This document shows, one piece after another, positions 240-62,700 of a stretch of 64,000 nucleotides of DNA (the first letter of the stretch is position 1; every line of letters starts with the position of its first letter). The translations under genes were made by a program, and so were the position numbers. Source of the DNA: Amoebophrya sp. A120 (lineage: Eukaryota; Protista; Dinoflagellata); NCBI GenBank assembly GCA_905178155.1, contig CAJINV010000013.1, positions 2,724,158-2,788,157 on the forward strand, written 5' to 3'. The notes below the pieces were generated by a model. That model ran no database searches. It had not been told where the DNA came from and saw only the letters and a list, made by a program, of their open reading frames with translations.

Positions 240-3200
240 GAAACCTGTCGGTAATTCTTGTTTTTCGACACCAGCTCCGTTCTTTCCTTGCCGTATTTCT
301 TCAGTCCCGCAAGAATGTTGTCCAGCCCCACAATGTTGTCTGCCCAGTGCATCGGACCGCCCTTGTAAGGGGGAAAGCCGTACCTGCGCGGGAGGTCGAG
401 GGAAGTTTTTGTTTGGGATCAAGACAGAGAGTCGAAATGGTCGTGTATCGAATCTCTACAACTTATTTTGTTCACGAACACTAATGGGCACCAGTGGACG
501 GGAGAAAAAACGCCATGAAAGAAAAATCTCATAGCGCTCCAATTTCAATATAGTACCCGTAAACGTAGACAATATCGATGTCTGATGGTCGCTGTGCCAT
601 GTTCTCCTCGAGAATCTTGAAGCCCTCGTTTACCAACGGGAAAAACAGTCGCTCGCACACCTCCTTCTCGTCAAACGACCGCGGGGTGACGCCTTTTGAC
701 TTCTGGATTTCGGCGACTTTTGGGGGCAGCTCCGGGTCTAGCTTCAGCTTCTTTCGGGTCTTTGCGTCGTACAGGAAAATACCTTTTCGTTTATTTCAGG
801 AGAAAACGAATGCTGTTGGAAAAAATTACTCAAAAAACAGCAGGGTCAAGAAAAATTTGGCCGCACGAAGAACATTCTAGTAGAAGTGGATGTGGAAACG
901 CCAGTTTTATATATTACCTCTTCCCGTCTTCACGCCCCACCTGTTCTGCTCGCAGAGCCAATCGCACATTTCATACGGCCCAATCGAAACTTTCGTCTCC
1001 ATCTGCATATTCCCCGCTGCCTTGCGCTGCTTCCAAAAGAGTTCCAAGCCGACCAGGTCCGCAAGGGTGAGCGGGCCCATGGGCATGCCAAACTTAAAGG
1101 CCGCGGAATCCACCAAGGACATGTCTGCGCCCTGTTCGACCATCATGCGAGCTTCCGCACCGTAGGGACCTCAAAATGTTGATTTCAACAGGACGCATTC
1201 TTTTTTATTTTTTAACCATCTTCATCTTCTTCTTCAGGAACAATGCAAGTGCTGCATAAACGCTTCGTGAATGAATGTAGGTAGTTGTCAACTGAAGAAA
1301 TCCTTGCAATTTCGTCACATCCAACATACTGAACAACAGAAGTCAAATGCTATTCTCTTTCGCGTTATGAATTTTTTCTAGTCATATTACAGAAGTAGTC
1401 CTCTAACTATACCCATCATCCTGTTTCCGACGAAGCCGTCGCAATTTCCGACTAACACCGCTTTTTTGCCGATCAGCTTGCCCATGGCCATGCAGCTCGC
1501 GAGCGTGACCGCGTCGGCCTTCTTGGTGCGCACGTTTTCCAGGAGCTGCATCACGTTGGCGGGGGAGAAAAAGTGGGTACCCATCACCTTTTCTGGGTAC
1601 GAGTAGGCGGCCGCGATCTCGTCGATGTCCAATCCGGAGGTGTTGGTGCAGACGTATCAAGAGGAAAACTCCCCCCTCCCCATATCGAAAACGAAATTTG
1701 TGGCGCTGTATTTGAGTACACAAATCGACTTGTAATGCTAGAAGGCCAAGAGACGCAGCTGTGGCCTCGTTTGCAGGCAATTCGTCATGCTGCTTCCCAC
1801 TTCCAGCTGCCGCCTGTCTTGCTGAAGCTGCAAGGCTTTCCCACGCCAACCAGCACTACAGTCCGCATCTTTTCCGTTCTAGCATGACAAAGCTGATTCG
1901 TGACCACAAATCTGCATCACAAATTCCTAGTTCGAGTATGGGGTGGGGGGATTTTTCATTTTGATAAGACGAGGCAGTCCTTCTTGCACACCTTGCCGAG
2001 CTCCTTGAAAACCTCCTTCTTCAGCGGCATAATCTCCGGAACCGCCTCGATGATGATGTCTACATCCTTCAAATCCTTGTAGTCCAGCGTCGGGTGCAGC
2101 AGCGACATCAGCTTCTTCGCCTGCTCCGGCTTCATCTTGCCCTTGGCGACCTGTTTTTTTTTGTTTCGTCACTTGCTTCGAGCAACGAGGATTAGCTGAA
2201 CATGGACATCGACATCAAAAAGTTTCATACAAAAGGTTCTTCTTATCTGTGAAGAAACTTTCACGTGGGAGTACGACAAAGACATCAAACCTTCGCCAAA
2301 ATACAGCTGCAAATACGTGAGAAACGAAGCTGCATATGAACAAGTCCGAGGGATGAAGCAGAGAAAAATCCAAACACCTACAGCAAGCGTGCAGCTGAAT
2401 GATGAATGTTGCCATTGCCTCCTTGTTACAAACTACTAACTATACCGTGATGTCGTAATTTTTCTTGATCGTCCCCACGCCGGCGTCGAGCCACTCCTTC
2501 TTTGCGTCCTTGATGACGACGGGGATGTTTTTCTTTAGAAAGTTCATGGCGATGCCCCCGCCCATGAGCCCGGCGCCGATGATCCCCACCTTCTTAATGG
2601 CCGTGGGCTTCGCGGTGTTGCCCTTCACCTTCAACGCCTGGCGCTCCGCGAAGAAAATGTTGCGCAGGGACGCCGACTCAGGGGACATGACCAATTTGCC
2701 GAACTGCTCCATCTCCACCGCGACCTTATGCATTGCAAATATGTCTGGGTCTGGAAACATGTAAACTTCTGATGCGCATTTGAGACCAGAGAAGAATCTG
2801 TCACGCATGGACTGCAAAAGTTGTCCATTTCTTGTCACCAAAAGAGGAACTTGTCATGCGGATTAGGCATCGCCTAACCTGTTCAAAACCTGTGTTGCCA
2901 GGACTTGCATGCCAGACCTTCTGTGCCCTGCACAAGAAGCATCACACTCTTCCAGACCCAGACATATTTGCATTTGATAGACCCCGGCCTCGAACGACGG
3001 GCCGAGGCAGGCCGCCTGGTATCAAAAGTAAAAATGTCTGGGTCTGGAAGAATGCAACTTGTAATGCGTATTTCAGAACACAGAAAAGTCTCTCATGCAT
3101 ACGTAGCAAAAGCTGCCCACTTTCTGTCAGCAAAGGAGGGGACTTGTCATGCGGATTCGGCATTGCGGAACTTCTCGAAACCTGTGATGCTAGCGCTTCC

Positions 3201-4940
3201 ATGCCAGACCTTCTGTGTCATGCAAAAACAGCATGACTCTTCCAGACCCAGACATTTTTACATTTGATACCTGGAAGCACTCGACTATCGCGTCTGGCGC
3301 GATCATGCCGCGAGCGGTCTTGCTCGCGGTCAGCCGGGCCATGTCGAGCCCCCCGGCCTTGGCCATCACCTTATTCCCGATCGGCACCTTCATCTTGGAG
3401 ATCGGCCGGGGAGGCTTGCTCAGCGCAAAGGCCGCAGCGGCGTCCAGGAGGGGCGAACCTGAGATTCATTGTTTTCATTTTTGCGTCGTGCAGGAACTTG
3501 TTTGTTTTCTACGAGTTGTCAGCAAGAAACTTTTATGCATCTACTGTCCCGCACCCGCGTTGAAGAGAGAGGATACAATTATAAACCAGTACAAACCAGC
3601 ACTTCTTCTACCCTTCGGCTCAACTTTATCGACGATCCCGGCTTTGTTGGCTTTCATCATGTTCAGATTCTGCCCTGTCATGACCATCTGCAGGGCGACG
3701 TCGAAGGGAGCCACCCGCGGCAACCTTTGTGTGCCCTGGCCCCCGGGGAGCAGGCCGAGAAGCACCTCTGGGAACCCGATCTGCGCGTTGTCCACGGCGA
3801 CCCGGTAGTGGCAGGCCAGCGCAACTTCGCCGCCGCCGCCCAAAGCTTGGCCGTTGATGGCAGCCACCGTGGTTTTCGGACAGGCGTCCAGGCCGTTGAT
3901 CATGTTGTGCAGGTTCATGATCTGTAATTTTGGGTGTTTGTTGGCATAGATACGAATCTCTCTTCATTTTTATCTAGTGCAAGGAAAATCAGAATCCGGA
4001 GGCTCTTATTCCCTTATGACGTGTGCACAAAACGAATGCGATTCCGACATGCATTTTTTTACTGTTATTGAAGTATCATTTCCGGTGCCGCAATGAACGA
4101 TGCATAAGTAGAGCAAGAAGTACTTCTTACCGCCTGCGGTCCCGCGGTCGCAAATTCCTCTATGGCAAAACCGCCGCAAAAAAGCGCGCCGTGCTATCAA
4201 CTGCAAATACGATGTCTGAGTGTGCAAGATTGAGTGTGTGCCTGGGACGCCCCAAGGACTCTGTATCTGTAGCTGCACTGGTACACGCATGTTCGTTGCG
4301 TAAAAACAATAACAATAATTCCCTCGTCTCTGCAGAAAGAATGAAGCAGCCAGCTCCTGTGCCTCAGATCAACAAGCAACGCTGGGCTGGTCAGCTGTCA
4401 TGCTCGGCCAGGCAATGTGGTGTGTTTGTGCAGCACAGACCAAAACACAACTTTATTCCGGACCCAGACATCATATCTTTGCAGTGGATACCTTCCCCGT
4501 GACAACCACCGCCTTGACTGCCGGGTCCTTGTATCCTGAGTAAAAACGTACCCACACCAGAGCTGTCATGCAGATTTGCAAAGACAGGAAGACTTGTAAT
4601 GCGCATCCCCATGAGAGCCATTTCCAATCGTGTTTTGGAATTTGTGATGCTGTGAACAGGATGAGCAGATGAATCTGCGATGCGGCTGCACTTGCTAACC
4701 TGCACTACACTGTAGAGTGCAACTTGTCATGCGTGACTCACAAAACTCCTAGGTTTGTGTTGCAAAATCCCCATCCTGACTCTGGTGTGGGTACGTTTTT
4801 ACTCAGGATACCTTGGACACCTTCGCCAAATTTTCATTGAAGGACTTGACCAGACCAGACGCAAGGGAATTCACGGGCGGGTTGTCCAGCGTGATGACGG
4901 CCACGCCGTCTGGCCGCACCATGCACTGCGTGGTGGCCAT
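240..4940 (-). CDS. Multifunctional fatty-acid beta-oxidation enzyme (enoyl-CoA hydratase + 3-hydroxyacyl-CoA dehydrogenase; MFP/EHHADH/FadJ-like), multi-exon, C-terminus continues past window start
   Basis: ATG at 4940 ([26 protein letters not shown]). Crotonase motifs [40 protein letters not shown]; Rossmann [13 protein letters not shown]; [40 protein letters not shown]. Interrupted by 6 introners and several GT-AG introns. Confidence 0.95.
1655..1966. mobile_element. Introner family A (312 bp), TSD agacg
   Basis: TIR tatcaagaggaaaactcccccctccccatatcgaa / ttcgagtatggggtggggggatttttcattttgata; agacg at 1650-1654 and 1967-1971; removal restores [11 protein letters not shown]. Confidence 0.93.
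2727..2979. mobile_element. Introner family B (253 bp), TSD gacct/gaccc
   Basis: TIR tatgcattgcaaatatgtctgggtctggaa / ttccagacccagacatatttgcatttgata; removal restores [11 protein letters not shown]. Confidence 0.92.
3020..3269. mobile_element. Introner family B (250 bp), TSD cctgg
   Basis: TIR tatcaaaagtaaaaatgtctgggtctggaag / cttccagacccagacatttttacatttgata; removal restores VECFQ-AACLGP. Confidence 0.93.
4195..4490. mobile_element. Diverged introner family B (296 bp), degenerate TSD cgtgc/ccttc
   Basis: Ends tatcaactgcaaatacgatgtctgag / gacccagacatcatatctttgcagtggata; removal restores VTGK-(H)GALFCGGF. Confidence 0.82.
4532..4810. mobile_element. Introner family C (279 bp), TSD ccttg
   Basis: Perfect 31-bp TIR tatcctgagtaaaaacgtacccacaccagag; removal restores [16 protein letters not shown]. 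Confidence 0.95.
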
Positions 4941-13405: not shown

Positions 13406-16400
13406 CTAACTTTTCACCACTTTCTTCATCGCGCGTTTGGGTTTGGGGTTTTGGTTCACTTTCTTCTCCTTCTGCTTGCACGCACACTCATGCGCGACCA
13501 TCTTGCTAATTCGCAGCGATTCACTATGGTCATGAGGCCGCTCCACCCGATTGTCGTGATTGAAGAGAATCTTGTACGTTTTGCATTTCCTGCATCGTAA
13601 AAACTCGCAACCTGCCCGGTTCGTGAAAAGTGCGTCTCGTGGTAGAACGTTTCGCCAGCCCTTCGCATCAGACCCAAAATAATACCGGCCCGCCCAGTGG
13701 TTCCAAAGGTGTTGCTCCGGTCGGTAGTCGCCTGTTGCTCTGCCTTGTGCGTCTTTTTTCCTTCCTATCCTGATGTATCCACTCTCCCTGTGGACCTGCG
13801 CATGTTTTTCCATTGCCCCCGCTGTGGAGGCGTACATTAATGCGCACGATTTGCAGAAGATTTTTTTGACATGCGCCGTCGGCCCCCTCGCCATCTTGTC
13901 ACGCAGAATGTCGCTGCTCCTCTCGATGATCTCGCGCCGTATCTCCTGATCTTGCTCGTTGCTGATTTGCTCGACCTTTTTCATAACTAGCGCCTTAATT
14001 TCCGTGTTAGTCGATTTTTTCACCGCATGTTCTTGCTGCATGTGCGCGATCATTTCCTCCGATGGCCCGCCGTCCGTTGTTCCCCACGAGGCCGCCAGCG
14101 GATAGCTCTGCTCGCACCACATGCACTGGCGCTCGGCGTCAAAATGCTCCAGGGCCGACGGCTGTCCTGTCGGGAGCGAGTACACTACATCCTCCGCACT
14201 CACGCTCGAGTCTTGTTCCTGTGCAGCCTTGATTGCATCCGCACGCGTTGGCGTCTGTCCTGGGTTGCCGAAATACTTAATAGCCAGCTCATCCGTTATT
14301 TTCTGCCGTAGTTCCTCGTCTCCATTGCTCCAGTCCGCAGCAGTTTCCCGTATGAAGCACTGCCGCGTCATTGCGTAGAAAAGTCGTTTGTTGGCAGCAT
14401 ATAGCGTCGAGCCATTCGGCAGCTCTTCGGGCTGCCGCGCTTGTGTTGTCTCCAGATCCTCGGTAAGGAGCTGCACCATTTCCATAGGCATGTTGCATTT
14501 TTTCGTCAAATGCTCCAACGCGTCTTGGAGGAAGGACTCCACCCGCCGCTCTTTTGGGTCAACTTCCTTAAGCTCCTTGACTGATCGTAGAACTTCTGCT
14601 CTGGCACGTAAACCATCTTCCAACGCATTGCCAACACTAGCCCCGCGGTACAAAATCGGCACAAACTTGCCCACCAGTGCGCGTCTGGCTAAATCGGTCG
14701 GCTTCCGTCGTAGTACGTGCCCCACAAATCGCATCTGTAGATACTTTAAGTGCACTCTGAACGGCGGGACTTTCAATTTGCGCCGAAGATCGGCCGCGCT
14801 CTTCTTCTGCAGTACACGCTCCCACCACGGAATGTCTTGAATCCTCTGCATCATCGCAATCTCCTCACGCTCGAGAGCCCGCACTTCGTCTGGACTAACA
14901 TACCTCGCCGTCAGGCCGTACAAGAATATGCTTCGGATCATTATGATGATTAGCTCTCCGCGCCGCTCAGCAAAAAGATTCGAAACGCCGCTCATCTTCG
15001 CCCGTAACTTGTTGTAGGCAGTCCAGGCCTTGCGCTTTTTTTGTCGTATGTCTTCACGGGGGTCCGTGTAGCTTCCTAAATTCCTTACCGACATGTCGCA
15101 GATGTTGCCACTAAATCGCTTGGTGTCGTTTTCCCGGCACCCTGACTCCCGCAGTGCCTTCGTCAGTAACTTCATGGCCTTAGACTCCGATGGCGCAAGC
15201 TTCTTCCCGATTAACTCCGCGTTGATTTTCAAGAACTGCTGCAATTCCGCCTCGGTCATGTGTTCCAGCAGCGTCGTGTCATCGGCAAACAGCAGGTCCA
15301 TCACGTGATCAGTGCTCAGCTCCGGCTCACCTTCTTCTGGCTTCTCGCCCCCGGTTATCTCATGCAGCTGGTCGGCCCTCTTCATATGTCCCAAGTCAGC
15401 GCGTGAATATAGCCTCACCCCTTTCAGTGATTCTGACCCCTCCTGACTGCGTAAAAGTCTGTGATATTTCATCACTGCCGTGTAGCTAATCAAGAAGACG
15501 AGGGGGCTGCTGACGCATCCTTCCTTCGTTCCATTTTCCAACGTGAATCGGTTTCCCGGCTTCTTGGTTTCTGGGTCGTAAAACTCGTGCTTGGCATGCC
15601 TATGGCTACTATTTATCAAGCTCCAACATGTTGTCTCCCCTATTCCCAGCGTCTCCATTACCGCCGTCACTAATCTCCAGTCCAGACTTGGGAAGGCTTT
15701 TTTGAGGTCCACCAGCGTCGCCAGTAACCTGCTTGATTTGTGCCGCGAATAGTGACACAGGTCCTCCCTTATTCGGTTCCAGATCATAATACTTTCTAGC
15801 GTGCCGCGATTTGCCCGAAAACCGAACTGGGTCTCGCAAAAGTATTGCTTGTCTTCCAGAACCTTGTAGAGCCGGTCGCTGTAAATTTTTGTGCACAATT
15901 TCAACAAACACGGCGACACTACGAGAAAGCGATAGTTGTCAGGTTTTGTCGGGTCTCCTTTTTTGAACAGCGGCACGTCCCGGCATAAATGCAAATCTTC
16001 ACGCAGCTCGGATAATCGTCGTCCCCGCAGTTGAGAGTTAATGGCCTTGGTCATCATTTGCACTGATGCGTCGTCGAGAAATCTAAATATTCCCGCGTGT
16101 AGACCGAAAACATCCCGCGCCTTGCCGCCCGACATCAACATCTTCGCCGCCTTCGTGAGTTCCTCTTCATCTATGTCTTTGTCCAATTCCTCAATCTCCT
16201 CCGCGGTTAGTTTCGGAACAAGCTCCTCGAGGTGTTGCGTGATCGGCAGCGGGGTGTCCGGATTTAGCCGCGAATTCCCGACACTGTAGTACTGTTCTTC
16301 CGCTTGGGTGGGGCTTATGGCACAAATTCGATCGATCTTTGAAATGTCAAACTCGCGGAAGACTCGCCACATTTCACTTCGTTTCTTCCCATCTTCCAAG

Positions 16401-44740: not shown

Positions 44741-46338
44741 CTTCCTCGTACTGCTACTGCCGGAAAAAAAGTGCTGTCTCCTGTAAAATACTTCTGCTTC
44801 GCCGGAAGGGTTTTGTGAAATAAATTGCAATTGCTGTTTAGATTCTACAAAATTCAAAAATTGATTCGCATTCGGCTATTCCATTTATCATGAAACAAAA
44901 TAAAATAAAAAAACAAATATTACAAGAACGGGCTGCAGAGCCGATATATGGCTGTCAAAAACCGCTACGGAATTTTTTGTATGTAGCCAAGAAAAAATCC
45001 TACAGAATCAAGTAAAAGTGCTTAGGCTTTTTAAATGATGAAGATAAAGATAATAAACAGCAAAAAAGTTTTACATCGCTGTTGTACTACTAGAAATGGT
45101 ACCGCAGATAAAACGAACTTGTTTATTCAACATGAAGGTGATCATCTAAAGTGGTATCACGTCCACGAGGGTGAAAGCACGTGCTTGCCACGTGCTTGCA
45201 TGTGGATGTGCTATTCGTAGAACTAGAAGTCGCCCTAAAAATAGTAAAGGCTGATCACGCACTCGTCGTATCCAATTGATGTCAAGCGGGAGGTTGCATC
45301 AAAATCATTCCGATCTTCGTTCTAAGTACTTTCTCTTGGAGAGAAAGCCGTTTTTCTTTTTCTCGATCGGATCCCTCTCCTTGTAGACCTTTTTGCTTTT
45401 CGATTGTCAGATCAGACGAAGTAAAAAACGAATTCGCTGAAACGACCAGTGCACAAAGACAAACTCGCGACTTAAGAATAAGACATCCGAATCACAGGTT
45501 GTTGTAACACGCTGGTGTTATGGCGCTCCCAAGTTGCGTTGCGAATCTGCTAACGCGTCTGCAACGGAAGAAGAAGAACTCCGCTGCATCGCGGACTGCG
45601 TCATAATAGTGGTCCCGCTACCGCCTCTTGGTCTTATCGCCCAAAAAAAATTTTCCGTCGCTGCAGTCTCGCTTACAACGAACTACGGGGCCGCCCATAG
45701 CAACATCAAATCGACAGTCAGGCATGAGGCCGACTTCTTCTCGGAATTGCTTACATGATCATTCTCGTGTTTGTTACCCCAGATCCATCGAAGCAAGCAA
45801 TCGAAAAACCAAGAAAATAGAAGCGAGACGACTAGGATGTTAAAAAAACTACTAGTTGTAAATCTTCAGAATGCGTGTCGGAAGTTAGTACAAAAAGAGA
45901 GCTGGAGAGCGGCTCGATTACAGTTATGAACTTGAAAAAATCCGAGCGCCGGGTATTTTTCAAATTCATAAAGCAAAGCCAGACTTCAGTGGAAGAAATT
46001 ACAAGAGCTTGAAATATTGTGGGGTAAAACGCTGATGTTCATCCAGGGTGGTTGTACCTACGATATTGAGGGCTATATCAATCACTGCAGCTGAAAAATC
46101 TCCTACCATAACTACACTAGTATCGATTTTCATACACACAGAGCTGCGATGAGAAGCAGAAAACTTGACACTAGTGTAGGTGCTATCCTGTGATAGAAAA
46201 GGGATTAAGTACTATTTAAACTTTAAAAATCTGTCTACTGCAGGGAGCTTCTCGATGATGTCGAAAGAGCGCGATTGCAAAACACGACCAGTTCACCTCA
46301 AAAATACTGAACATCTCCTTGCAATGAAACTCCCACCT

Positions 46339-48174
46339 TCACGCCTTCCGCAACCGCTTTGCCACGTCGTCTTTGGACAATTGCAGCGCCCCGGACTTCT
46401 TGTTTTGACCCGACAGGTACCCGCGGTAGACCTTCAGCTTCTCTTGCAGATCCGCGTACACCTTTTCCCATTTCGCCCCCTTTTCCTGCTTCAGCGCGAT
46501 CATCTGGTTCTCCACCGCACGAACCGCAAACTGGCACAGCTCCTGCCACGGGGGGTGTGGAGGGAAAGAAATCTCTGCCTGAGAGCTCTACGTTCGTGCT
46601 TGTGCTGCTTTTTTGATTCATCATCATCTTCATCCTCATCTCGAGGGTAAGAAGTAAAAGAGCAAGAAGCACCCGAAGAGCAAGAAGCAAGCAGACTACT
46701 TGCAAATACTCCAACCTGTAGCTGCACGATCATGAGCAGCATGTTAGGACGTCGAATACACTTCCTTGTTCCGGAGAAACAAGTCAAGAAGCATGCAAGG
46801 CACATCTAGCCTTTTCTCTTCTGGAAATGAGAATTTATGAATGCAAGAAAGCAGCACAAAAATCAGGCAGAAGTGTTGTCGGGGGAGCAGTGGTCTCAGT
46901 TCCCCGGACGATACCCTCTTCGCAAGGTTCACGTAGCTTGGGCAGGAATCCTTGGGCCGCATGTCGTGCATGTGATTATTGGAATCGCGGAACAGCCCGC
47001 GGAAGTTGCCCAGCTGGTACACCTTCTTCAGTTGCGTTTGCGGGTCGATCTCCGGCGCGTTCAGAAATTCCGGAATGGGGACCTCCCGCAACCCCTGTTT
47101 TCTCAGCGCCCGGGAGTAGTCGAAGTCCGGTGGGGGCCACTGGGGAAAGACGTACCACCACCGGGAAAGGATGTCGGAAATCAACTTGGATCGCTCGGTA
47201 GACACAGAGCCGTCTGTCATGGTGGGAGTGTTGAGATCTGACAACTTTTTAGCAAACAGAGTGGCGACGTGGTCAAATGATCAAGATGACGCTGACTACG
47301 ATTAGCACTAGAGAGCAGTTTATTTCCGTCATCAGGATCAAGTTGCCCTTCCTTCATCAGTATCCAGCATCGAAAGGCTAGCGTGAAAACTACTTAGACA
47401 AACAGCAATAGAAATTAATCCATGCAAAACCAAAACCAATAACGGGAATGTATACCTGTCGCGTTTCTCCACCCGTTGATTGCCCTGGACTTGGGGCTGA
47501 GCTGCGTTTTTCTGTACTCCGGGATTTGCGCGCGGAGCACCGGCGACACGCCGTTGTCGGTGACCAGGCTCATCAACCGCTCGCGCGGCGGGAATTTCGG
47601 CTCCCACATTATGAGAGTGTCAGGTTTGAAATCGACAAAGTTGAAATACTTTGTCATGCATAAAATGGATGCCAGTTAGACCTGCAGTTTGTAATCGGTG
47701 CATGGCAAATTTTCCCGGTTCTGGAAGCGAGTCTGTCATGCGGTTTAGGGCAAAAGAGCTGCCTTCTGTCATGCTAGTCAGCAGTCCAACTGTTGACCCT
47801 TACCAGGACTATAATCTGCCTTCCTTGCGTCCTCTGCAATAGAGTCACTTTTTGTATCGCATTTTAATATGCATTACAAGTTATTTCAACTTTGACGATT
47901 TCAATCCTGACAGATCCATACACATCTTCGGCAAGTTAAACTTTTTCTTCATGTCCTCCTCCTCCTCCCGGCGCGGCGACCGCGACCGACGGGGCGTCAG
48001 TGACCGCCGGATCTCCACCTGCTCCCGGCTGACCGGCAGCGGGGGCACGACCTTGTGGAAGCTGCCCTGGCCGGCGTGGTGACCCTCATGACCAGGCGTG
48101 GGCAGGGGCCCGCTGGACGGCCCGGCGGAAGAGGACTGGGGTGGCGGGTGCACTTTGATTGAAGGGGACGACAT
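46339..48174 (-). CDS. Multi-exon conserved hypothetical protein (RWWY..P.WPP domain)
   Basis: ATG 48174; introner at 47610-47920; GT-AG intron at about 47240-47455; domain ILSRWWYVFPQWPPPDFDY...FRGLFRD...DMRPKDSCPS; last exon ELCQFAVRAVENQM...RLRKA with stop at 46339. Confidence 0.7.
47610..47920. mobile_element. Introner family E (311 bp), TSD cacat
   Basis: Imperfect TIR of about 55 bp, tatgagagtgtcaggtttgaaatcgacaaagttgaaata / tatttcaactttgacgatttcaatcctgacagatccata; removal restores NLPKM-WEPKFPP. Confidence 0.9.
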
Positions 48175-49237: not shown

Positions 49238-52200
49238 TCACAGTTCTTCTCTTTCCTTCGGCGTCCGCCACACATTCAAGGCCATGTCTCTTCTCGCAGA
49301 GGCCATGGGCTGCTTTTCCCCAGCCTGCTTGGCAAATTGCCGGTTGGATTTCTTGTAGGGCTTTTCGAGGAAGCTCCTCTCCAGCTGGATCGCCATGCTG
49401 AAACGCGATTCCTGCGTGCCGATGAAAAAGTCCGCCCGGTATCAAGAAGAAAAATCCCCCCGCGCCATATCAAAACGGAAATCTGTGATGCTGATTTGCA
49501 GTCGCAAATCAGCTTTGTGATGCTAGAAGGGAAAAGATGCGGACTGTAGTGCTGGGTGGCGTGGGGAAGCCTTGCATCTTCAGCATGACAGAAAGCAACT
49601 GGAAGTGGGAAACAGCATGACAAATTTCCTGCAAACGAGGCCACGACTGCGGCTCTTGGCCTTCTAGCATTACGAGTCGATTTGTGTACTTACTCAAATA
49701 CCGCATCAGAAATTTCGGTGTCGATATGGGGTGGGGGGATTTTTCCATTTGATACCCGGCTCGCAATCCACATCTCGACGATGCTCTGCTTGCCCGGGTG
49801 CTGCAGCGTTTCCCGGTGCGCGTCCGAGGTTTCCTGGTAGTCGAAAAACACCAGATCGGACGCGGTTTTCTTGGTTTTTTTGCTTGTTTTTGTTCCACCG
49901 GCGTCCGCGTCGCTATCCTCTTCGTCCAGTTTGTCTAACACGTCCTCACCGTTGAAGAGCAGCATGGCCTCCTCCTTCTCCGCCTTGGTGGCGTCGGTCG
50001 CGATGAAGATCTTCTGCAACTTCGTCTCCTTCTGCAGCGCCTTCAGCTGCGTCACGATCGAATCCCAGTCAGCTGTGGTCGAGGCCCGGGACTTGACGAA
50101 ATCTGACCGACGACAATGCGCGGCAATAAACTTGGTACCTGTACTAGTGTCGTAGATTTTTGAAGTACAGCTGTTGTTGCATCAATATTTCTTCGTGCAC
50201 CAAAGAAAAAGATAACAGCATGATCAGCTCATCACATGAACATGAACATGATCATGAAGTCGCATGTCTCTATACCTCCAAACTTTTCCCGCATAAACTC
50301 CTCCCCGATGGTTCGCAGATCTTTGTGAAAATGGACCGACTCCCGTAAGCCAATGCCGTCCAAGGCGGAGATGTCCGGAATCGCCAAGTAGTCGTAGTGT
50401 TTGATCAGCACGGTCGAAACGTCCTTGTTGCCATCGTCGAGCATGTCGACAATGCCCTGCGCGAACGGCGTTTTGATGATCCCACACTTCACATTCGTCG
50501 TCACGACCCCCTTGTCGCAATACCCCGCATAGACGACCCGTTTTTCGTCTTTCTCCTCACTATTTTCCACGTCTTGCACAACTCCGGTTATCAGAGAGAA
50601 GTAGTAGAACACCTACTCCCTCGCCCTTCTTCACGATAATTTTTACAGGAAATGCAAAGCAAGCGAAACAAGGACAAGATAGAAAGCCAAGAGTGATACA
50701 ATAAATCTGCTCTCGCATGAAAAGAAACGAAGAGCACAGACGCACGGATAGATTGTAGAAGCGCCATCCACCTGCAGCTCTGGCGCCGGGCGCCTCATGC
50801 AACAAACATGGCCACAGCACTCCTGAGCTCCTTGAGCAGCACATCAAGTGTACTAGGCACGTCGACTATGTTCGTGCCTCTTCACGATTTTTCTCGAGTT
50901 GACGACGGAGGGGAAGATCTTCCTGTGCACTCGGATCATACCGCCCTTTGCCTTGTCACAATCGGTGTAGTCGTTCTGCGACCACCCGACAAAGTCGTCC
51001 CCGGGGTTTTTCCCGGGTGAAATCATCCCGTACCTTTGCTCAACGTCGTAGAAAATGACGCGGTCGATTTTGTTGGAATTGTTCAGCGCTTGCTGGGACA
51101 GCTCGTGATACTCGATCACGGAGAATGGCAGCTGCTTCAACATGTCAATGTCGAACAGTTCGCCCCAGGGTAGTTTCTGCAGGCGGTTGGGCAAGTCGTA
51201 GTTCCGCCAGTGCGCCAGCCGGCACCAGGGGGGCAGCACAATCCCCCACAGGACGCAATCCGGGGTCTTCCCGAGGGAACCCGACTCCCCGCACCGGTCT
51301 TCGATACGAAAGTTTAGCATCGCCACCGCGTGCGCGACGCGGGGAAACACTTCCCGCTGGAGGTTAAACCCCTCGCCATACTTCGTGTCATACAAGAGCC
51401 AGCGCCGGTTCTTGCTGGTGGTAGATGTTGAGTCCGTTTCTGCTGCATCAGTACTATCATCTGCAGCGCTGCCGCTATCGTGGAGAATTACCTTGTTCGT
51501 TCCCAAGGTGTCCGTCTCCTTCGCCTTTGGGTCTTTCTGCTTGGTCGGCGGATTTTTCAGCGCGTCTAAAACGTGGTCCAGCCCCGCTTGGTCGTCGGCC
51601 AACACGGCGGGCTCTTTCTTCTTCTTTTTCTTGCCTTCTTTTCCAGCTTTCGACGCTATTGCTGTAGGTTTTTTCGTCTTTCCCGAAGTAGAAGATGTCG
51701 CGGTAGAAGTGGTACTTGTGCTGGTACTAGTACTTCTTTCTGGTTTATCTTTCCCGGGTATCTCCTTTGTGCACTTGGATACGCACTGCGCCATCGGTCT
51801 GCGCATGGCTTTGTCGTAGCACATACAACTAGGCCCAACCTCCGGTGGCTCGGGCGTATCCGTGCACGCCGCGCCGCCACGCGACATTTGGAAGTTGCCC
51901 TTGCCCATAACTCCCTCGCACCAGGTCTGGCACGTGTTCAAGTCGGCATTATCGGGACACGGGTGAATCAACCCAGTTGTCGAATCAACAGCGGGGGCGA
52001 CGGCCGGCGCAGAAGGAGTACTAGCAGAGGCCACTTTCTTTTTCATCTCTGCGGCTTTTTTCTTGTCGAGGTTTTTTTCGGAATTCGAAGTTTTCTTGGT
52101 TCCCGCCATTTTCTTGTGCAGAGCCTGTTCGTCGTCGCCACTATCGTCGGTGTCTAGGTCGTCTAAGTCATCGTCATCTTCTGCGGTGGTCTCCGCTTCG

Positions 52201-55200
52201 GCGTCGATTTTCATCTTCGCTGCTTTTGTTTTACTTTTGATGTTCCCTTTCGTTGTCTTTGTACTGCTCTCTACAACTTTTTCGTTCTGCAATTTCTTCT
52301 CTACAAACTTGACGAACTCGTCCTGTTTCCGGCCCCCCTCGAACTTCTCGATTATCCTGAGTAAAAACGTCCCCACACCAGAGTTAAGCTGGGAAATCTG
52401 CTAGACAAATCTATCAGTTTTTGCTGTTGCGCATGACAAATTTGGCCTCGCAGTGTAATCCTGTTTAGCTTGTTTAGCAGCATCACAGATCTAGCACATC
52501 ATGCTGATTCTAGCATCACAAATCCAAAAACACGACTAGAGACTGCTTCTCATGGGTCTCCGCATGAGAAACATGCTCAGCGTGCAGATTTGCATTACAA
52601 CTCTGGGGTGGGGACGTTTTTACAAATGATATCGATATCCTTCGCTTTATCCGCCGGGTACCAGTAGATGGTCGGGTACCCACTTATGCTCGGCATCACC
52701 TTCTATCAACTGTAAAAATGTCTGGGTCTGGAAGAATTCGAATTTGTGATGCGAAGTCTACATCATGAGAAAATCTGTCATGCATGGCTAGCAAAAGGCC
52801 CCACTTCTTGTTTCCGAGAGCCGGGATTTGTCATGCGGATTAGGCATTGGGATATCTGCTCAAAATCTGTGATGCTAGAGCTTGTATTCCAGACGATTTG
52901 GGTCATGCAAAATCTGCATGACAGATTTCGCATTCTTCCAGACCCAGACATTTTTGCAGTTGATACCTTCCGTGCGTCCGTTTGCGTCGCGTCCATCTTG
53001 GCGATCAGGACGCTCTCGTTCTTCTCGAAGTGCTTCGCCACCTTCTTCCACACCGGCGCCAGGGCTTTGCAGTGTCCGCACCAGGGCGCGTAAAACTCGA
53101 CCAGGAGGGCCTGCTGCCGGTTCTCCACGATAGCTTCCCAGTTGGACCCCGTCAGCGTGACCACCACGTCCTTCTCGGCTTTTAGTGTCTTGCTCCCCCA
53201 GGCCTTCGCGAACTCCTGAATCTCGCTCTTCGTGATCTTCTTCAGGTTCGGGGGTTTCTTGCCGCCTTTCGTGGACGGGTCGTTTGCCTTGCCAAAATGG
53301 TACACCTGGGTGGGGGTAGGGGAGGGGTAGTTAGTACTACACGAGGTTTATCTTTTTACCCGCAACCTTTACTTGCAACATGTTGGAAAGAATTCTGATC
53401 AGCCTAAGAACGCTAACGAGCTGCAAGCAGTTTACACACTTATACGTAAACACCTTATCTTCGTCTTCGGTCTCACCGAATTCCCAGATAAAAAACGCTG
53501 GCGCCTGGGTATCACTCGAAATGTGCTTCACAAAGTCGTCCCCCCATGTGCCGGTTTTTGCCGCCACCCACTTTAGTTGTCTTTGGGCAGTGTCTTCAGA
53601 CGTGTTCTTTGCTTTGTCCTTTTCCAAAGTCCAGTCCTGCGCCGCGCGGTAAGCTTGCTCGAAAAGGTGCACATCGGACGCTGCGTCGCCGTACACAACG
53701 GCGAGCGCCTTCCCGGGCGCAGTGTCGTGCAGGAAGAGCGACTCGTTCTCCTGCGCGGCCGTAATCAGGTACTTTCCGGCCTGGTTGACCTTGATCCAGG
53801 AGAGAAGGTTTTTACCGCTTGTTCCTTCTTCCGCGATCTCAGGACTTGTAGTGTCGCGGTACACGACGCCAGAATCAAGAATTACATCTGTACGTTTAAA
53901 ATATCCCGCTTTTTCGGATATCACCGCAGTGCAAAGGTACGTCTACGTTGATCTTGATCATGTTCTTGCTATATACGAAAATAGTCAGAAACAAAAAGCA
54001 GGCGAACAATGTTGCACAACAGAAGTAGTTGAAGTACAAAATGAACACGGGCGATCAAGTAGGTGCTGGCGTCATTACTAGTATAAATATGGAGGAGGCA
54101 ATGGCACCCTGATAGATCAAATTGTACCGTTCCGGAGCAGATACGTCCCGACTTTTCCCTTCGCCAATTTCAGCGCAAAGTCGTCCCACTTTTTCCAATC
54201 CGGCTTTTTCTTTATCTGCTTTACCAGCGACTTCAGCAGCTGCGAATCCTTTTCCACATACACAACCGGAAAGTCTTGGTCCTTCGCATTCGCAACCGGT
54301 CGTGGGTTCAACACAAACCCCGCGCCGGCCAGCTCCTGAATCCCTGCATCGCCGGCCACATCCGGCTCGATCTCGGTGCCTTATGCATTGCAAATATGTC
54401 TGGGTCTGGAAGGTTGGAACTTGTAATGCAGGTTTTCCATGACCCATGAGGTCTGGAATGCCGAACCTAGCATGGCAGAGTCTGTGAGGTCTCTGTCATG
54501 CCTCTCCTGCATGAGAAACTCCCTCCCAACTTGGTTGAAAGTGGACAACTTTTGGCACTCACGCAACCCAGATTTTTGCATGATTCGGATTTAGCATGAC
54601 AAGTTCGCATTCCTCCAGACCCAGACATATTTGCAATGCATATACCTACGTGCAGAACCACGAAGGGTTTCTTCATCAGTTTCTCGACCACCGCGGATGC
54701 GGACACCTCGGCGGCGTCAAATTGCTGGAAAAACGGTTTCTCATTTTCGTACTTCCCGGTCACGTATTTTTTGAAGGAAGCCGCGTCCCGTTTTCCGTTG
54801 TACCGCACGTAGTAGTTCTGGTTTCGGTAGAAAAGGAGCAATGTGGGAAACCCGGTCACCGCAAACTTTCCCGCCAGGTCCTTCTCCACCGTGGCGTCAG
54901 CTTTGGCAATTTTGATGCTACCTTCCTCGCCCGTTTCTTCGCCCCAGGAAACTACCTCGGTCGCAAGCTTGTCCCAGTCCGGAATCAGCTTTTTACAGTG
55001 CCCACACCAAGGAGCGTAGAACTTTACGAAGGTAAGAGTGCTGGACTCGAGCGTGTCATCGAAATCAGCGGACGTTAGCTCGAGAACAGCAGCGGTGGTC
55101 GAGACAACCAGAGAATTACTTTTGGTGAGACTTGATCCGCAAAAGGACCACTTTACCACGCAAGAAAAAAGCATTCTTGCGCTGAACCCTCGCGGCCAAC

Positions 55201-55237: not shown

Positions 55238-55796
55238 GTTATTTGTTTTTGTTCCCCTTCCGTGCCGCGACTTTACCGCTTCCCTTCGCAGTCGAAGTTC
55301 GAATGACAGCGCGAACTTATTGCGATCGAAGAGAAAACTTGCCTCTTCGTTGTTACCAGGAAACCAGCCTCATCTTCAGTTTTACTTCATATGACGATCT
55401 CACAACCGCACATTCTAACTTCCTGTTCCTGCTCCGGCTACAACTTCATACATAAATAAAGAGTCCCATGGCACAACTCCACGAGTGGCATAATTTCATC
55501 ATCATTTCACATTCTTTCATTATAGAAGGCCGCATGTTCATTTGCCATGAAAAAGGTACATCGAGCGTTTTGGCCGCAGGTGGTGTGCATGATCGAACGA
55601 GGATCTTGCAAGCATCGAACCGATGAAGACATCATGTTCACGGAAAGCATCAAATAGAAAACCAGGACCGAGTTGTCACTTTGCGAAGCACCAAGAACTA
55701 AAAGAAATACAGCACACAGCATGAAAACTCTTGGAAAAAAGAAACAGATCGATGACCCATTTCATTTGATACTTGTTCGGTTTTGAAGATCTAAAA

Positions 55797-55954
55797 GTTG
55801 AAAGGGCACACGGCACGACTGCAACGCAAGCTGCTCTATCGTGCAACGAATTTTATCACAGTGATGATTTTACTGCTCTACAGCGGGAAGTGAAGTACCG
55901 CGACCGCCGAGCAAGTGCCGTTTTTTTTCCTTTCCTACAACTGCAAGGTCATGA
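55797..55954. repeat. Intergenic dispersed repeat of about 160 bp, copy 1
   Basis: Aligns by eye with 58830-58994 (shared blocks tgcaacgaattttat, gctctacagc, gtgaagtaccgcgaccgccg, aactgcaag.tcatga). Confidence 0.85.
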
Positions 55955-56898
55955 TTCAAAAGTTGCTTGGCGTAAGATGTAGCTATCTGAAAAGATAGTT
56001 CTGTTTCTTCGTGATTCAAAAGTTGCAGTTAGAGTTATATGAGAAAAAAAATTAGCTCGGGGAAGTTGTAAAGACGTGCTGTAAAAATGAACAGTGCAAT
56101 TTATTTTGGTACTATGAGCTTGTTTGTTTGTTGATTTGTTCAGGATGGTCACATGGAACCGCTTGAAAGGTGGTCTTTCCTCATCCTCTCATGTGTCTAG
56201 CGCTATTTCAATAAAAACGAACGACTTGGTGGAGCTCCTTTGGCTCCCACCTCAGAAAAAGGAACTGCTGCCGAGAACGAGAAAAATTTTTTGTTAGGAA
56301 GAGCCTGCTACTGGATAAAAATAAAATGGTTGCTACTGAAGTTTTTAAAAGGTTGTACGTGGTAAAGCTGTAAGAAGAACGCTGCTGATTAAAAGTCTTT
56401 TAAGATCTAAAACTTGAGTCTGAGTTTTGTTGCTTTAAAAATCTAAAACTTGAAGCTTCTTGCAGTTGTCGAAAGATTTGGGTTTGGGGCTTATCATACA
56501 TTGCAGTTCAAAATCAAAGAAAGACGAAAGAACTGCGAGGACGAGGACGGGGGAAAGAGCATTTTTGATGTGAGATGAAAAAAAGTTCTAAAGATAAAGT
56601 AAGTTTATGTTATGCTAAACAGTAAAAAAAATAAAGGTGTGAAAATTACATGAGGAATCGATCGCAAACATCATCGTCATCATTTATCCTGCACTAGGGG
56701 GGGACGTGCGGAGGGGTTGGGGTTCGAGTTCGTTTCAAACTGCATCTCGGGGTTGTGTCACAGCAGCTTCGCACATCTTCGTGTTTCGTCGTTTACTACG
56801 AACGAAACATTCAAAAAAAAAAAACGGTGAGTTCCGTAGTGCACCCTGATCATCTTGTCGCTGAAGACAATGAGAAGACAACATTTGTCATCTTTTCT

Positions 56899-58217: not shown

Positions 58218-58829
58218 TTTTCCTTGTCCTTCAAACTCCTGCAAACGGCAAAACTACTCCAACCACAGTAATTGCCGTACAAACTTGAAGATTCTTGTTT
58301 GTCCACTTGATAGCCGCAGCAAACAGAACGAGTTTCAGCTCGATCCGTTCGAGGACGGTTGAAAAAACGAGGGGTGAGTGTTGAGGTGCTGTTGATGGAA
58401 ATGGGAAACTTACTCTACTACTGATTCTACTTCTTTCCGTGCCGCACAGGGAGACGTTCGAAAAGTCATTTTGTTTGTTTGAGGACGGTAAAAATCAGAA
58501 AAAAAAAATTACGACGAACGACAAGTCTGAAGGGCGCCGACGAGGGAGGGAAAGAAAATGAGCGTAAGCAGCAACAAAAGCCACATGATGATGATGCTGG
58601 CAGTGTGCCCTTTAGCGGACTGCTGCGCGCTACTCCCTCCTCCAGCCCGAGAGCAGCTGAACGCCGATCTTCTATGACGAACAGTTGATCTATACCATAA
58701 GGGCGCGGCTGTTGGTACGAAAATTATTTCGGAATACGAGGGATCCTTAGTACGACGATCGGTCATAGATGAAGATGCACGAGTGGGGACGAGGACGATT
58801 ACATAGTTCTGAATATACCTCACTTTAAT

Positions 58830-58994
58830 GTTGAAGGGGCACACCACACGACTGCGCCGCAAGCGCAAGCTGTTTCAGTTTCTGCAACGAATTTTATAAC
58901 AGTGCCGATTTTACCGCTCTACAGCAGAAGGTGAAGTACCGCGACCGCCGCGTAAGCGCCGCTTTTTTCTTTTCCAAAAACTGCAAGATCATGA
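58830..58994. repeat. Intergenic dispersed repeat of about 165 bp, copy 2
   Basis: Same-orientation match to 55797-55954. Confidence 0.85.
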
Positions 58995-59748
58995 AACTTG
59001 TCTTCATTTTCACAGCCCTCCCTGCTTCCAAAAAGTCCACAGGCTCAGGAGAAAGATGTTGTTTTTTACGCCACCAGGGTGCTCTTTCTCTTCTCTTCGC
59101 ACAGATTCAAGGAGTGATATGCTAATAGATTACAGGCACTGTAAATCATGCTGTGAAGGTGGAGCAAGACGTGGAGATAGTGTACACATATTTTTTTTTC
59201 TTGAAGATGAGGTTTCGGAAACAATAAACGAATAAACGCGTGATCAAACTTGTACAGTGGATGATAATTCTTGTTCAAATTTTGCAGTAAATCACCACAA
59301 GCCCGCCCTCAAAGCGCTAGCGTGCGTATCAGATCCAAATCCAATCGTAACAATGATAAATTTTGCGTAAATACAATTACAAACAAGTCTCAAATAACAA
59401 TGACAATACAGTGTAAAATTTTCATGTTCAAATTCAAACAAAGTGGTTTCTATTAAAACCTTATAGACTTTTCAACACAAATCCGTCGCGCAATTCTTGT
59501 ACTTGTTGTTCTCATCACACTACACGTCGCACGAAAGAATGCTCAAATTGCAAACTTCGCTACGGCTACAGCATGAGTGATGAGCTTAATGACGATATTA
59601 TTGAAACATAAGCAGATAGCTCCTAACTGTTCCACATTTTCATTTACTTTAGGTAAGTTGACAATAACCCACCATGTGTTCACGCTCCTTGGTTACTGCT
59701 GCACGTTCGTATGAACCAAAACCAGTCGATTGCAGAGCGACCGTCAAC

Positions 59749-62700
59749 TTAGTTTTCCTTGTACTGTAGGTTCCACTTGCCCAACCGGCCCAACGCGGAG
59801 GCCTTCAGCTCCCCGACCGAGACGTTGGCCGCCCCCAGTTTCGCGGCGGACCCGCTCCCGGAGCCCTTCTGCAGACCGTGGCCCTTTCCGCCGAGCGCGA
59901 CCAACCGGTCCATTAACGGGAAGTATCAAAATGAAAAATCCCCCCACCCCATACTCAACCTAGAAATTTGTGATGCAGATTTGTGGTCACAAATCAGCTT
60001 CGTCATGCTAGAAGGGAAAAGATGCGGACTGTAGTGCTGGTTGGCGTGGGAAAGCCTTGCATCTTCAGCATGACAGGGGGCAGCTGGAAGTGGGAAACAG
60101 CATGACAAATTGCCTGCAAACGAGGCCACAGCTGGGTCTCTTGGCCTTCTAGCATTACAAGTCGATTTGTGTACTCAAATACAGCATCACAAATTTCGTT
60201 TTCGATATGGGGAGGGGGGATTTTTCCTTTTGATAGGAAGTGGTCGTTGTTTTCCGCGTGCGCGACCGCCGTGTACTGCTTCGCGTCGTACGCGTTCAGG
60301 TCCGCGTATCCCACAGAAAAAAGCTGGCAGGGCATATAATTTGTAATGCAAAAATAAATACACAGAAAGACTTGCCATGGGCGGCCCCATAGCATGCAGC
60401 TTCGGATATGCAATACAGATTTTCTTGTGTATCTGTATTTATTTTCGCATTACAAATATGACCTGCCAGCTTTTTTCTTTGGGATACCGCGCCGAGCTCG
60501 AGCAGCAGCATGCACACCTCACTGTGGCCGCCGATCGCGGCGAAGTGCAGCGGCGTGCGCTTCAGGCGGTCCAGGGAGTTCACGTCCGCACCCCACTCGA
60601 CCAGGCGACACACACCGTCCACATCGTTGTTCGCGGTGGCGATGTGCATGGCCGCGCACCCGTTGCTATCGGACGCGGTGACGGGCACCCCGTACATGTG
60701 CAGCAGTTCCATGATGTCGTAGCGTTTGTGCTTGGTCGCGATGGTGAAGGGGATGTCGCCGGTCTTCGCGTTTTTCAGGTTCAGGTTCGCCCCCCGGCGG
60801 TAGCAGAGCTTCGCCAGCGCGAGGTTGCCCGTCAAACAAGCGTGCTCCAGCAGGGTTTTCTCGCTCTCAATGTCGCGGGCGTCGATGGAGGTGGTGTCGA
60901 GTAACTGTTATCAAAAGGAAAAATCCCCCCTCCCCATATCGAAATGGAAATCTGTGATGCAGGATTTGAGGTACCAAATCGACTTGTCATGCTAGAAGGC
61001 CAAGAGCCGCAGTCGTGGTCTCGTTTGCAGGCAATTTGTCATGCTGTTTCCCACTCTCAGCTGCCTCCTATCATGCTGAAGATGCAAGGCTCCCCCACGC
61101 CACCCAGCACTACAGTCCGCATCTTTTCCCGTGTAGCATGACAAAGCTGATTTGTGACCTCAAATACAGCATCACAAATTTCGTTTTCGATATGGGGAGG
61201 GGGGATTTTTCCTTTCGATAACTGCTCCAGTTTGTTCAGCAGAATGGTGCCGTTTTTCGTCAAAATCTGCCGAATGTTGAAGGTTGTGATCTTCTCCCGC
61301 GGCTGCTGCATCACGCCCCCGCGATAGTGACCCGCCGCAGCTCCGTGATGTTGTCCACCATGGGCCATGGACCCAGCCGCTCCTTTGCTGCCGGCGTCGA
61401 GGGTCGTGCCGGCTTTGCCCGTTTGATGCATCGACGTGGCGGATTTGTTGCCCGCCTGGTCCCCCGCGCCGGCTTCCGCGTGCTCCTCGGAGGCGGCAAG
61501 CGCTTTGGCGTCGCCCGCGGCGGTTTTCTCTTCCCGCTTCTTCCCGCCTTGCTCCAACAGCTCCTGCGACTTCAACTGATCCTCACTGGGCAGGTTGATG
61601 GCCTGGTCCGCGGTCAGCGTGGCCGGCTTTTTCTTGTCGTTGATGTCGTCTTCGGAAATGAGCAGGATCTTGGACAGTGCGTTCTGCATCTTCTTCACCG
61701 TGTTCACGTCCATCGCGCCCCACTTCACCTGGTCCGGCTTCGTGGATTTCACTTGTGGGTGCCCCGTGTCGTGCAGAAACTTCCACAGCGCCTTGGACAA
61801 GGCCAGCAGAATCACCGGCGCCGGGCCGGGCAGGGTGGCCAGTTTCGGCCAGTTCTTCAGGTCGGCGGAGGTGGGTTGCACGTCGCCATCAATCGCTTGC
61901 AGAATACCATCGTTATCCTGCAAATGCAAGATCGCGAGCGGGGTCAAGCTGTGTGTAGGAGTTGTTTTTTCATGAGGGATTTTTTCAGGGTGCAGTTGCT
62001 ATTTTTTCATGAATATACAAGGTTGTCAACATCGATCTGCAAGCCATATGTTATACTCATGACTCAATCTGCGGGGTGAGGTTTCACACAGAAGTATACA
62101 GAGTTCTATCGTACGTCATGCTCTTCAAGTTCAAAATACATGACTTTATTATACTTTTTGTTGTTCTGTCGTTCGATGATGGCGGTCATGAAGTAACCGA
62201 TGGACCTTAGCGAGAACAGGTTCGCTTCCAGGGAGATGTAACTGAGACTCGGGCACGTGGTGATGATCTGGCAGATATCAAATGCAAAAATGTCTGGGTC
62301 TGGAAAAATGCAAGATTTGTCATGCTTAACAGACTGCGCAGCTAAATGCAAGATTTGTCATGCATATTTCTCATGACCCATGATGCCTGTAATGCATGAC
62401 CTAGCATCGCAAACATTCAAAGGGCTTCCTGATGCACGTTCCGCATGAGAAATGCCCTGTCAGTGCAGCACAAACGGCGCCCCTCTTGCTGGTCATGCAA
62501 TACAAAACTTTTTAGAGTCCAAAAACAGCATGACAAGTTGCAATCTTCCAGACCCAGACATTTTTGCAATTGATAGCAGATGTCCGCACAGGAGTCCATG
62601 GTCAGCTGATTTTTCGACAAGTCGAGCGTGTGCAAACTCGGGCAATCGGTGAGGACTTGCGACAAGGTGGAAAACCCAATATCGGAGATGGCGGACCCCC

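Follow-up and report, generated by a model that had tools for sequence, protein, structure and literature searches.

The window analyzed here, a 64,000-nt stretch of the dinoflagellate Amoebophrya sp. A120 (contig CAJINV010000013.1, positions 2,724,158 to 2,788,157), raises the question of how genes are expressed when their coding exons are interrupted by short inverted-repeat elements, many of which offer no register with the GT-AG or GC-AG ends of a canonical intron. We find that the elements are lost exactly from transcript-like contigs or annotated proteins, each with 5 nt of duplicated target, that the availability of canonical dinucleotides in copies from a relative is at the level expected by chance, and that the upstream copy of the target is retained wherever the two copies can be told apart. 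Our favored reading, to which we give a probability of about 0.5, is that these TAT...ATA introners are cut out by a relaxed spliceosome that is positioned by the ends of the element and not by GT-AG.

Elements in the window

A search for inverted arms with flanking 5-mers, with BLAST between copies for family links, recovered all 15 complete elements (180–315 nt) of the initial annotation, in families A (four copies), B (seven), C (two), D (one) and E (one), each with a TAT start and an ATA end. There are two further copies, a decayed sixteenth element (F1) and a family A copy truncated by the window start (A0). The host genes all run on the minus strand. The copies are listed below, with joints given as the two window positions brought together; P0003 and P0121 are annotated proteins, L042 is an orthologous locus of a relative, and X3, X5 and X6 are transcript-like contig sets, all of which are taken up in later sections.

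A0, 1..239, no strand assigned: family A, truncated by the window start; right end ...GATA at 239; in the same gene as A1; ~70% to the A copies (BLAST)
A1, 1655..1966, 312 nt: perfect 5-bp duplication; no GT/GC-AG register; 317 nt absent from P0003, orthologues ungapped
B1, 2727..2979, 253 nt: duplication 4/5, upstream copy retained at position 1; GT-AG register possible; common to L042
B2, 3020..3269, 250 nt: perfect duplication; GT-AG in the -1/+4 register
B7, 4195..4490, 296 nt: divergent; duplication 3/5; 301 nt absent from P0003; same junction in L042
C1, 4532..4810, 279 nt: perfect duplication; GT-AG in the -1/+4 register; L042 site empty
B3, 34926..35178, 253 nt: duplication 4/5; GC-AG register available; 258 nt absent from P0121, which has Arg
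D1, 47610..47920, 311 nt: perfect duplication; no GT/GC-AG register; joint 47604>47921 (316 nt) in X5 and X3
A2, 49440..49754, 315 nt: perfect duplication; no GT/GC-AG register; joint 49434>49755 (320 nt) in X5
F1, 50589..50940, 352 nt: decayed; duplication 3/5; no terminal stem and no GT/GC-AG register (GT-CG in -1/+4); joint 50583>50941 (357 nt) in X5
C2, 52353..52631, 279 nt: perfect duplication; no GT/GC-AG register; joint 52347>52632 (284 nt) in X5
B4, 52704..52965, 262 nt: perfect duplication; GT-AG in the -1/+4 register; joint 52697>52965 (267 nt) in X5
B5, 54382..54642, 261 nt: duplication 4/5; GT-AG register available; 266 nt removed by length; a piece of X6 record 10 starts at 54643 with 0 other letters
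A3, 59924..60235, 312 nt: perfect duplication; neither GT nor AG in any register; joint 59918>60236 (317 nt) in X5 and X3
E1, 60307..60486, 180 nt: perfect duplication; no GT/GC-AG register; joint 60301>60487 (185 nt) in X5 and X3
A4, 60909..61220, 312 nt: duplication 4/5, upstream copy retained; orientation opposite to A3; no GT/GC-AG register; joint 60901>61219 (317 nt) in X5 and X3
B6, 62276..62575, 300 nt: perfect duplication; no GT/GC-AG register; joint 62270>62576 (305 nt) in X5 and X3

With F1 included, the elements are non-coding, span 180–352 nt and have TA..TA termini in 16/16 cases. The left end reads TAT, seven variable bases and at least three A in 14 of the 16 (the exceptions being D1 and F1), as read off the window elements. 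The initial annotation had given all 15 complete elements a 5-bp duplication; it is perfect in ten, matches at 4/5 in four (2727, 34926, 54382 and 60909) and at 3/5 in B7, and F1 also has 3/5. The A copies are 85–95% similar to one another by BLAST, and six of the seven members stand in family B, the seventh, B7, being B-like in its terminal repeat only and having no BLAST link to the others. No register across the duplication gives GT/GC-AG on the sense strand in 10 of the 16, namely the eight copies for which this was originally reported, B7 and F1; a GT-AG or GC-AG register is available in the other six. Folded end to end, A3 and B5 reach z scores of -9.7 and -10.0, whereas a GT-AG intron from the same gene scores -0.8. 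As a control, the same finder run on 60 base-shuffled loci (not the window itself) returned three candidates, none with a perfect duplication.

Neighboring elements are crowded, with exons of 36–66 nt between them (2980–3019, 4491–4531, 52632–52703 and 60236–60306), a spacing that may reflect chromatin or an insertion preference. There is also a 46-nt, apparently perfect TAT...ATA hairpin at 45925–45970, which has no duplication.

Removal from transcript-like contigs and proteins

Contigs of X5 and X3 were mapped on 47001–63400, and X6 and the DNA-type set X1 were mapped as well, all beyond window position 44000. The RNA type of X3, X5 and X6 is an automatic guess, supported by the loss of GT-AG introns and by empty bins where X1 depth is ~30; this evidence comprises assembled, cDNA-derived contigs that come from two samples of a single study and on which the public annotation may itself be based. 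Among the joints listed (15 of 16), the element and 5 nt are skipped at D1, A3, E1, A4 and B6 in both X5 and X3, and at A2, F1 (which was found through its 357-nt joint), C2 and B4 in X5. These nine sites and a tenth, B5, which is lost by length, make up 10/10 of the elements in the mapped stretch. Eight of the listed joints are non-canonical, and five GT-AG introns are skipped in the same contig data. In X6, record 11 is short by exactly 819 nt (317+185+317); record 10, at 4480 nt, has the length of the gene model minus B5 and 5 nt. The precise loss of an element and one duplication from RNA, which had been proposed from the DNA, is thereby seen in RNA-type contigs for seven of the eight copies originally named as non-canonical. 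One further joint, 59998>61184 with 24 other letters, resembles a chimera of A copies.

At the remaining six sites the element and 5 nt are absent from A120-annotated proteins (P0003 for A1, B1, B2, B7 and C1; P0121 for B3). The exon adjoining A1 identified P0003, which its sources assign to Amoebophrya sp. A120 and which is identical across 93% of the query; residues 1–693 of this protein match the window exons letter for letter, with the mapping ending at 239. A second exon identified P0121, which has the same source name and also matches the window exons letter for letter. Orthologues stay in register across the P0003 joints.

In X1, unique contigs at a depth of ~30 extend out of the flanks into the ends of the elements (one DNA sample, with a joint table dominated by repeats, of which 15 of 888 rows were listed). 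No junctions were seen in run X9, which holds exon pieces only, or in run X13, in which 149 reads, all partial on the window, gave element matches only. No back-joined joint of the circle type is among the joints listed, and contigs of unstated library type cannot show its absence. Raw RNA reads of X13, which carries the same species label, join B-like arm sequence to foreign flanks at 52704, 54557–54606 and 62274; judging from these letters, family B appears to occur in another strain, with one copy seemingly abundant in RNA and either unspliced or outside a coding exon.

Host genes and coding frames

Three host genes are as follows:

239..4940, minus strand: enoyl-CoA hydratase / 3-hydroxyacyl-CoA dehydrogenase bifunctional enzyme; 12 exons in the window, five whole elements, six GT-AG introns; Pfam ECH; P0003
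48971..55469, minus strand: thioredoxin/protein disulfide isomerase (PDI) domains followed by an O-fucosyltransferase domain (Pfam); spanned by one 4480-nt contig (X6 record 10) that lacks five elements and three GT-AG introns
58963..63300, minus strand: leucine-rich repeat (LRR)-like and ankyrin-repeat protein; 752-codon open frame once four elements and one GT-AG intron are removed

If retained, an element introduces an in-frame stop within itself in 15 of 16 cases, and in the remaining one it causes a frameshift with a stop just downstream. Deletion of the element and one duplication restores CTNTS, WIASRADFFIGT and the open LRR-like/ankyrin frame, as the initial annotation had stated. The exons are open and much better conserved than the introns in comparison with L042. 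The spliced model of the second gene (4480 nt) has an open frame of 1370 codons, and a single transcript-like contig places its two thioredoxin/PDI domains and its O-fucosyltransferase domain in one frame, which is an unusual fusion.

Insertion history and the relative

A search with the B-type arm motif, covering 12 of 64 parts of the collection, returned at least 164 loci (413 kb). They all carry the assembly prefix JACKZZ01, which we refer to as the relative; its loci were therefore chosen by the B motif and are known from DNA alone. One of them, L042, is the orthologue of window positions 240–6550 at ~90% identity. B1, B2 and B7 are present in L042, while A1 and C1 are absent, with a single 5-mer at the site, and A0 is absent too. 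These empty sites, a check suggested at the outset, indicate that the duplication was made at insertion and that the insertions are recent. Families A–E all recur in the relative.

The 288 non-redundant candidates in the relative have flanking 5-mers that are perfect in 218, match at 4/5 in 41, at 3/5 in 12 and at fewer positions in 17. Among 170 strong-armed copies, 138 have a duplication of exactly 5 bp and none has one of 6–9 bp, and A occupies positions 11–13 in 465–490 of 518 ends. Elements lie in a coding-like context more often than random positions do, both in the relative (153/184 vs. 531/1380) and in the window (15/16 vs. 417/1000). These elements have the properties of miniature inverted-repeat transposable elements (MITEs): they are short and non-coding, have terminal inverted repeats (TIRs) and carry a duplication of fixed length made at insertion.

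No transposase family was identified by Pfam in 26 open reading frames (ORFs) of the window or 120 ORFs of the relative's loci, the sole mobile-element domain being a reverse transcriptase; no matched-end element longer than 631 nt was found within 3 kb in the relative's loci, and the B-type arm pattern had no match in viral contigs. We infer mobilization by a transposase encoded elsewhere. Some longer B and C copies in the relative (L035:3314–3770, L064:571–1051 and L065:3862–4492; 457–631 nt) contain extra internal sequence, with ends and duplications intact.

Splice dinucleotides and orientation

To assign a sense strand to the relative's copies we used a codon model, which was right for 16/16 window elements, agreed in 123/128 within-locus pairs and matched Pfam strands in 11/11 cases (five loci). 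Filtering for strand and coding context left 190 of the 271 copies with at least a 3/5 match, and the duplication is perfect in 150 of the 190. GT/GC-AG is available in 11/150 on the sense strand and in 8/150 on the antisense strand, with 6.2% expected from flanking exon 5-mers (p 0.50). The base composition of the duplications resembles that of the flanks, and the 121 of the 190 copies that can be oriented are split 62:59 with respect to the sense strand. GT/GC-AG availability is therefore at chance, orientation is random, and targets of any sequence are tolerated. A G bias at duplication positions 4–5 and an enrichment of canonical registers (6/16), both suggested by the window, were gone in the 150 copies. 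The GT/GC-AG ends of canonical U2 introns are absent in 10 of the 16 window elements and apparently unused in two more, B5 (GT-AG) and B3 (GC-AG).

The ordinary GT-AG introns of the window start with GTA in 10/11 cases and with GTAT in 5/11. Three of the five RNA-confirmed ones (47214–47455, 50136–50272 and 53302–53449) have direct repeats of 5–6 nt at their borders. As the intron at 47214–47455 resembles an aged element, starting GTAT and having a near-duplicated 5-mer that differs at position 5, some canonical introns may be old introners.

Position of the cut

Where the two 5-mers of a duplication differ, the product shows which copy is retained. The upstream (sense) copy was retained in 6/6 diverged duplications, three of them informative at position 4 (p ~0.017 under a uniform register). 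Contigs retain it at A4 (position 1), F1 (positions 1–2) and B5 (position 4), and proteins retain it at B1 (position 1), B7 (positions 2 and 4) and B3 (position 4). The residue concerned in B7 is a Lys of P0003 that is conserved in P0004, P0005, P0007 and P0013; the ends of B7 are therefore GT-AC or TA-CG, and the downstream copy is without AG. Retention of the upstream copy at position 4 means that the GC-AG register available at B3 is not used and that the GT-AG register available at B5 appears unused.

Since the upstream copy was kept throughout, the 5' cut falls 0–1 nt before TAT. All three window copies that have both a perfect duplication and GT-AG (B2, C1 and B4) have it in the -1/+4 register. 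The cut is likely N|UAU...AUA-NNNN|, that is, 1 nt before TAT on the 5' side and 4 nt after ATA on the 3' side. In this register every intron starts N-U-A-U, and one spliceosomal signal may survive (compare +2 to +4 of 5/11 window GT-AG introns). In Table S4 of Farhat et al. (2021; PMC7789003) the nine commonest A120 non-canonical classes all begin N-T, and the nine commonest of strain A25, whose arms start TTA, start TT. When the 40 diverged duplications of the relative were polarized by AT bias, by eye, no direction emerged.

Mechanism of removal

Insertion into an exon makes the 5-bp duplication, and removal restores the original exon length. Under the relaxed spliceosome that we favor, the UAU of the element would stand at +2 to +4 of the GUA(U) donor that is usual in this organism. 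In young copies the two ends would be drawn to each other by the terminal stem, and the 3' cut would fall 4 nt after ATA with no AG being read. A role of the ends is supported by the three copies common to the window and L042, in which the terminal 30 nt differ at 6/180 positions and the interior at 68/609 (p 0.0008; gaps left out, with four of the six differences in B2, which is possibly converted). F1 is stemless (z -0.9), has GUAUGA at -1 and a pyrimidine run and CUGAUA before its 3' end, and is removed exactly. By its motifs F1 looks spliceosomal, as a single case. Its removal also implies that stem and repeat are not the whole rule. The initial proposal that excision is set by the TIR stem and the direct repeat, not by dinucleotides, is supported in its second half; its first half, as worded, is not supported, given F1, the exact removal of two elements whose duplications match at only 3/5, and the lack of a G.U bias in the arms. 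Consistent with a spliceosomal route, the A120 spliceosome is described as near-complete, with only U1 small nuclear RNA (snRNA) undetected, this RNA being found in neither strain (Farhat et al., 2021; PMC7789003).

Several observations weigh against this reading. The register rests on six sites, none of which distinguishes -1/+4 from 0/+5, and of these B5 depends on the piece boundary at 54643 and B3 on the annotation only. The placement of junctions in Table S4 may reflect an aligner's choice among equal placements. In the relative, the -1/+4 register gives many different dinucleotide pairs and no 3' signal. The U at +2 is predicted to be paired in the stem and would need unwinding. The branch-like motif TGATA, present in F1, is not enriched at the sense 3' end relative to its mirror at the 5' end (30:34), and arm mismatches on the sense strand show no bias toward G.U over A.C (115:122), and so no sign of an RNA stem under selection; both tests are weakened by differences that were already present in the parent copies.

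A more specific version of the spliceosomal reading is one that we regard as rather doubtful. Here the terminal repeat would be a two-way splice cassette, with UAU serving as donor +2 to +4 in either orientation and AUA setting the acceptor by distance (the cut 4 nt later), its first A possibly being the branch nucleotide at -7, for a U1-less spliceosome with no G at +1 and no AG.

Removal of the same elements in the same register without the spliceosome is possible, although we lean against it. In this scheme an endonuclease or TIR-binding protein would recognize the ends or the stem and leave fixed overhangs, and a ligase would join the exons, as proposed for the nonconventional introns of euglenids. 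The absence of any dinucleotide, orientation or branch-motif bias fits this route, as do the very stable end-to-end stems, the conserved arms, the lack of U1 snRNA in the published accounts of both A120 and A25 (PMC7789003) and the parallel with Euglena, where fixed overhangs and circular products are described (PMC12501133, PMC11282704). Two results are harder to accommodate: F1, which has no stem, is nevertheless removed exactly and carries a GU donor, and the likely register reproduces the organism's own donor at +2 to +4.

We consider it very improbable that the elements are eliminated from DNA in some life stage, with transcripts made from cleaned templates. Internal eliminated sequences of ciliates are excised at TA-type ends with inverted repeats, leaving one repeat behind, and the ends, inverted repeats and single remaining repeat of the window elements resemble them; arm conservation after insertion without a G.U bias would also fit recognition on DNA. 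However, X1 contigs, from the one DNA sample mapped, run into the element ends, which makes such removal unlikely, and the relative's assembly also carries its elements in place.

Still harder to credit is the view that the joints are cDNA artefacts, produced by reverse transcriptase jumping between direct repeats across a hairpin, with RNA keeping the elements and the genes either dead or translated by ribosomes hopping between matched codons. Direct repeats with strong structure are a known substrate for template switching (PMC4176328), the RNA evidence consists entirely of cDNA-derived contigs, which drop minor forms, and a 5-nt repeat includes a matched codon in every frame. Against this, a polymerase copying 3' to 5' would be expected to carry the downstream repeat, whereas the upstream one was kept in 3/3 contig and 3/3 protein cases, a fixed polarity that argues against the artefact; F1, with neither a stem nor a good repeat, would be spared. 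In addition, single contigs lose up to five elements along with GT-AG introns, and the exons are open and conserved far above the introns vs. L042.

Ordinary splicing at cryptic GT-AG sites close to the elements, in favor of which stand the GT-AG or GC-AG registers available in six of the 16 window copies, is refuted for the eight non-canonical joints, which remove exactly the element and 5 nt where no such register exists, and has next to no standing elsewhere, with two available canonical registers apparently unused and availability at chance in the 150 copies.

Comparison with known systems

The system is already known for this organism, and specialists would find nothing surprising in the elements. 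Introner elements of A120 and A25 were described by Farhat et al. (2021; PMC7789003), with inverted repeats of TAT, seven variable bases and at least three A, direct repeats of 3–5 nt and RNA-supported non-canonical junctions. Based on the identity of the A120 proteins and the fit of 14/16 left ends to this motif, the window elements are the published A120 introners, as the initial annotation had supposed; they share the TAT inverted repeats, the border direct repeats, the repeated families and the lack of an internal transposase. That account gives arms of 8–20 nt and a border that is "unknown" (Fig. 3 legend), argues against general mobilization by transposase and finds families to be strain-specific (A25 vs. 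A120). Here, in contrast, the duplication is strictly 5 bp with empty sites, longer arms are possible, the cut is narrowed and families A–E recur in a closer relative. We found no paper that settles the register or the machinery in its open text without figures, and Figures 3 and S19–S25 of Farhat et al. may already show T at +2.

The nonconventional introns of Euglena (PMC12501133, PMC11282704) are also non-GT-AG, have inverted repeats that join the ends, frequent direct repeats, a proposed MITE origin and fixed overhangs beside the stem. They differ in belonging to an unrelated lineage, in having circular products and in their signature, N3CDG...CH'GN5-6|R rather than N-TAT...ATA-N4; by eye, the window ends do not carry the euglenid signature. 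The introners of Aureococcus and Micromonas, which derive from MITEs (Huff et al., 2016, as cited in PMC7789003), are likewise TIR elements whose duplication is absorbed, leaving the protein unchanged, but the Aureococcus elements have canonical splice motifs, to which the window elements are indifferent. In Fritillaria borealis (Henriet et al., 2019, via PMC11282704 and PMC7789003), non-canonical introns of MITE-like origin are ascribed to removal by the spliceosome despite their odd ends; a few end pairs are preferred there and none here.

As to the mobilizer, Gozashti et al. (2025; PMC12130899) report introners of the TIR type and a TIR-flanked integrase-like family in A120. IS3EU/GingerRoot elements (PMC10045372) share TA..TA termini and TIRs with the window elements, and their integrase-like DDE enzyme is a candidate mobilizer; they usually have 6-bp duplications, whereas the duplication here is 5 bp (6 bp in 0/170) and no transposase was found.

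Other features of the window

Other features are listed here.

13406..21916, minus strand: intronless 2836-codon ORF with an RVT_1 domain, probably a non-LTR (long terminal repeat) retrotransposon; none of the element families inside
38969..44875, minus strand: intronless 1968-codon ORF with no Pfam match; X6 depth absent over its 5' part
55794..55994 and 58827..58994: two intergenic copies of a repeat (~160–200 nt, 84–88% alike) that flank a gene whose 378-codon ORF belongs to no known family; X1 depth raised nearby

We considered the repeat at 55.8 and 58.9 kb as a transposase element and rejected it. Rfam gave no match in the window, including this repeat.

Implications

Beyond the known system, this analysis shows that the duplication is strictly 5 bp long, with empty sites to match, that splice dinucleotides and orientation are at chance level, and that the cut has a polarity. 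The comparison of diverged duplications is a cheap way to fix the intron border genome-wide. If the cassette reading were true, insertions in exons would be cost-free at any target, and the machinery would read structure and spacing, not dinucleotides. Scarless removal of any exon insertion would account for intron gains in the tens of thousands, and splice sites would then be chosen in a way not seen before.

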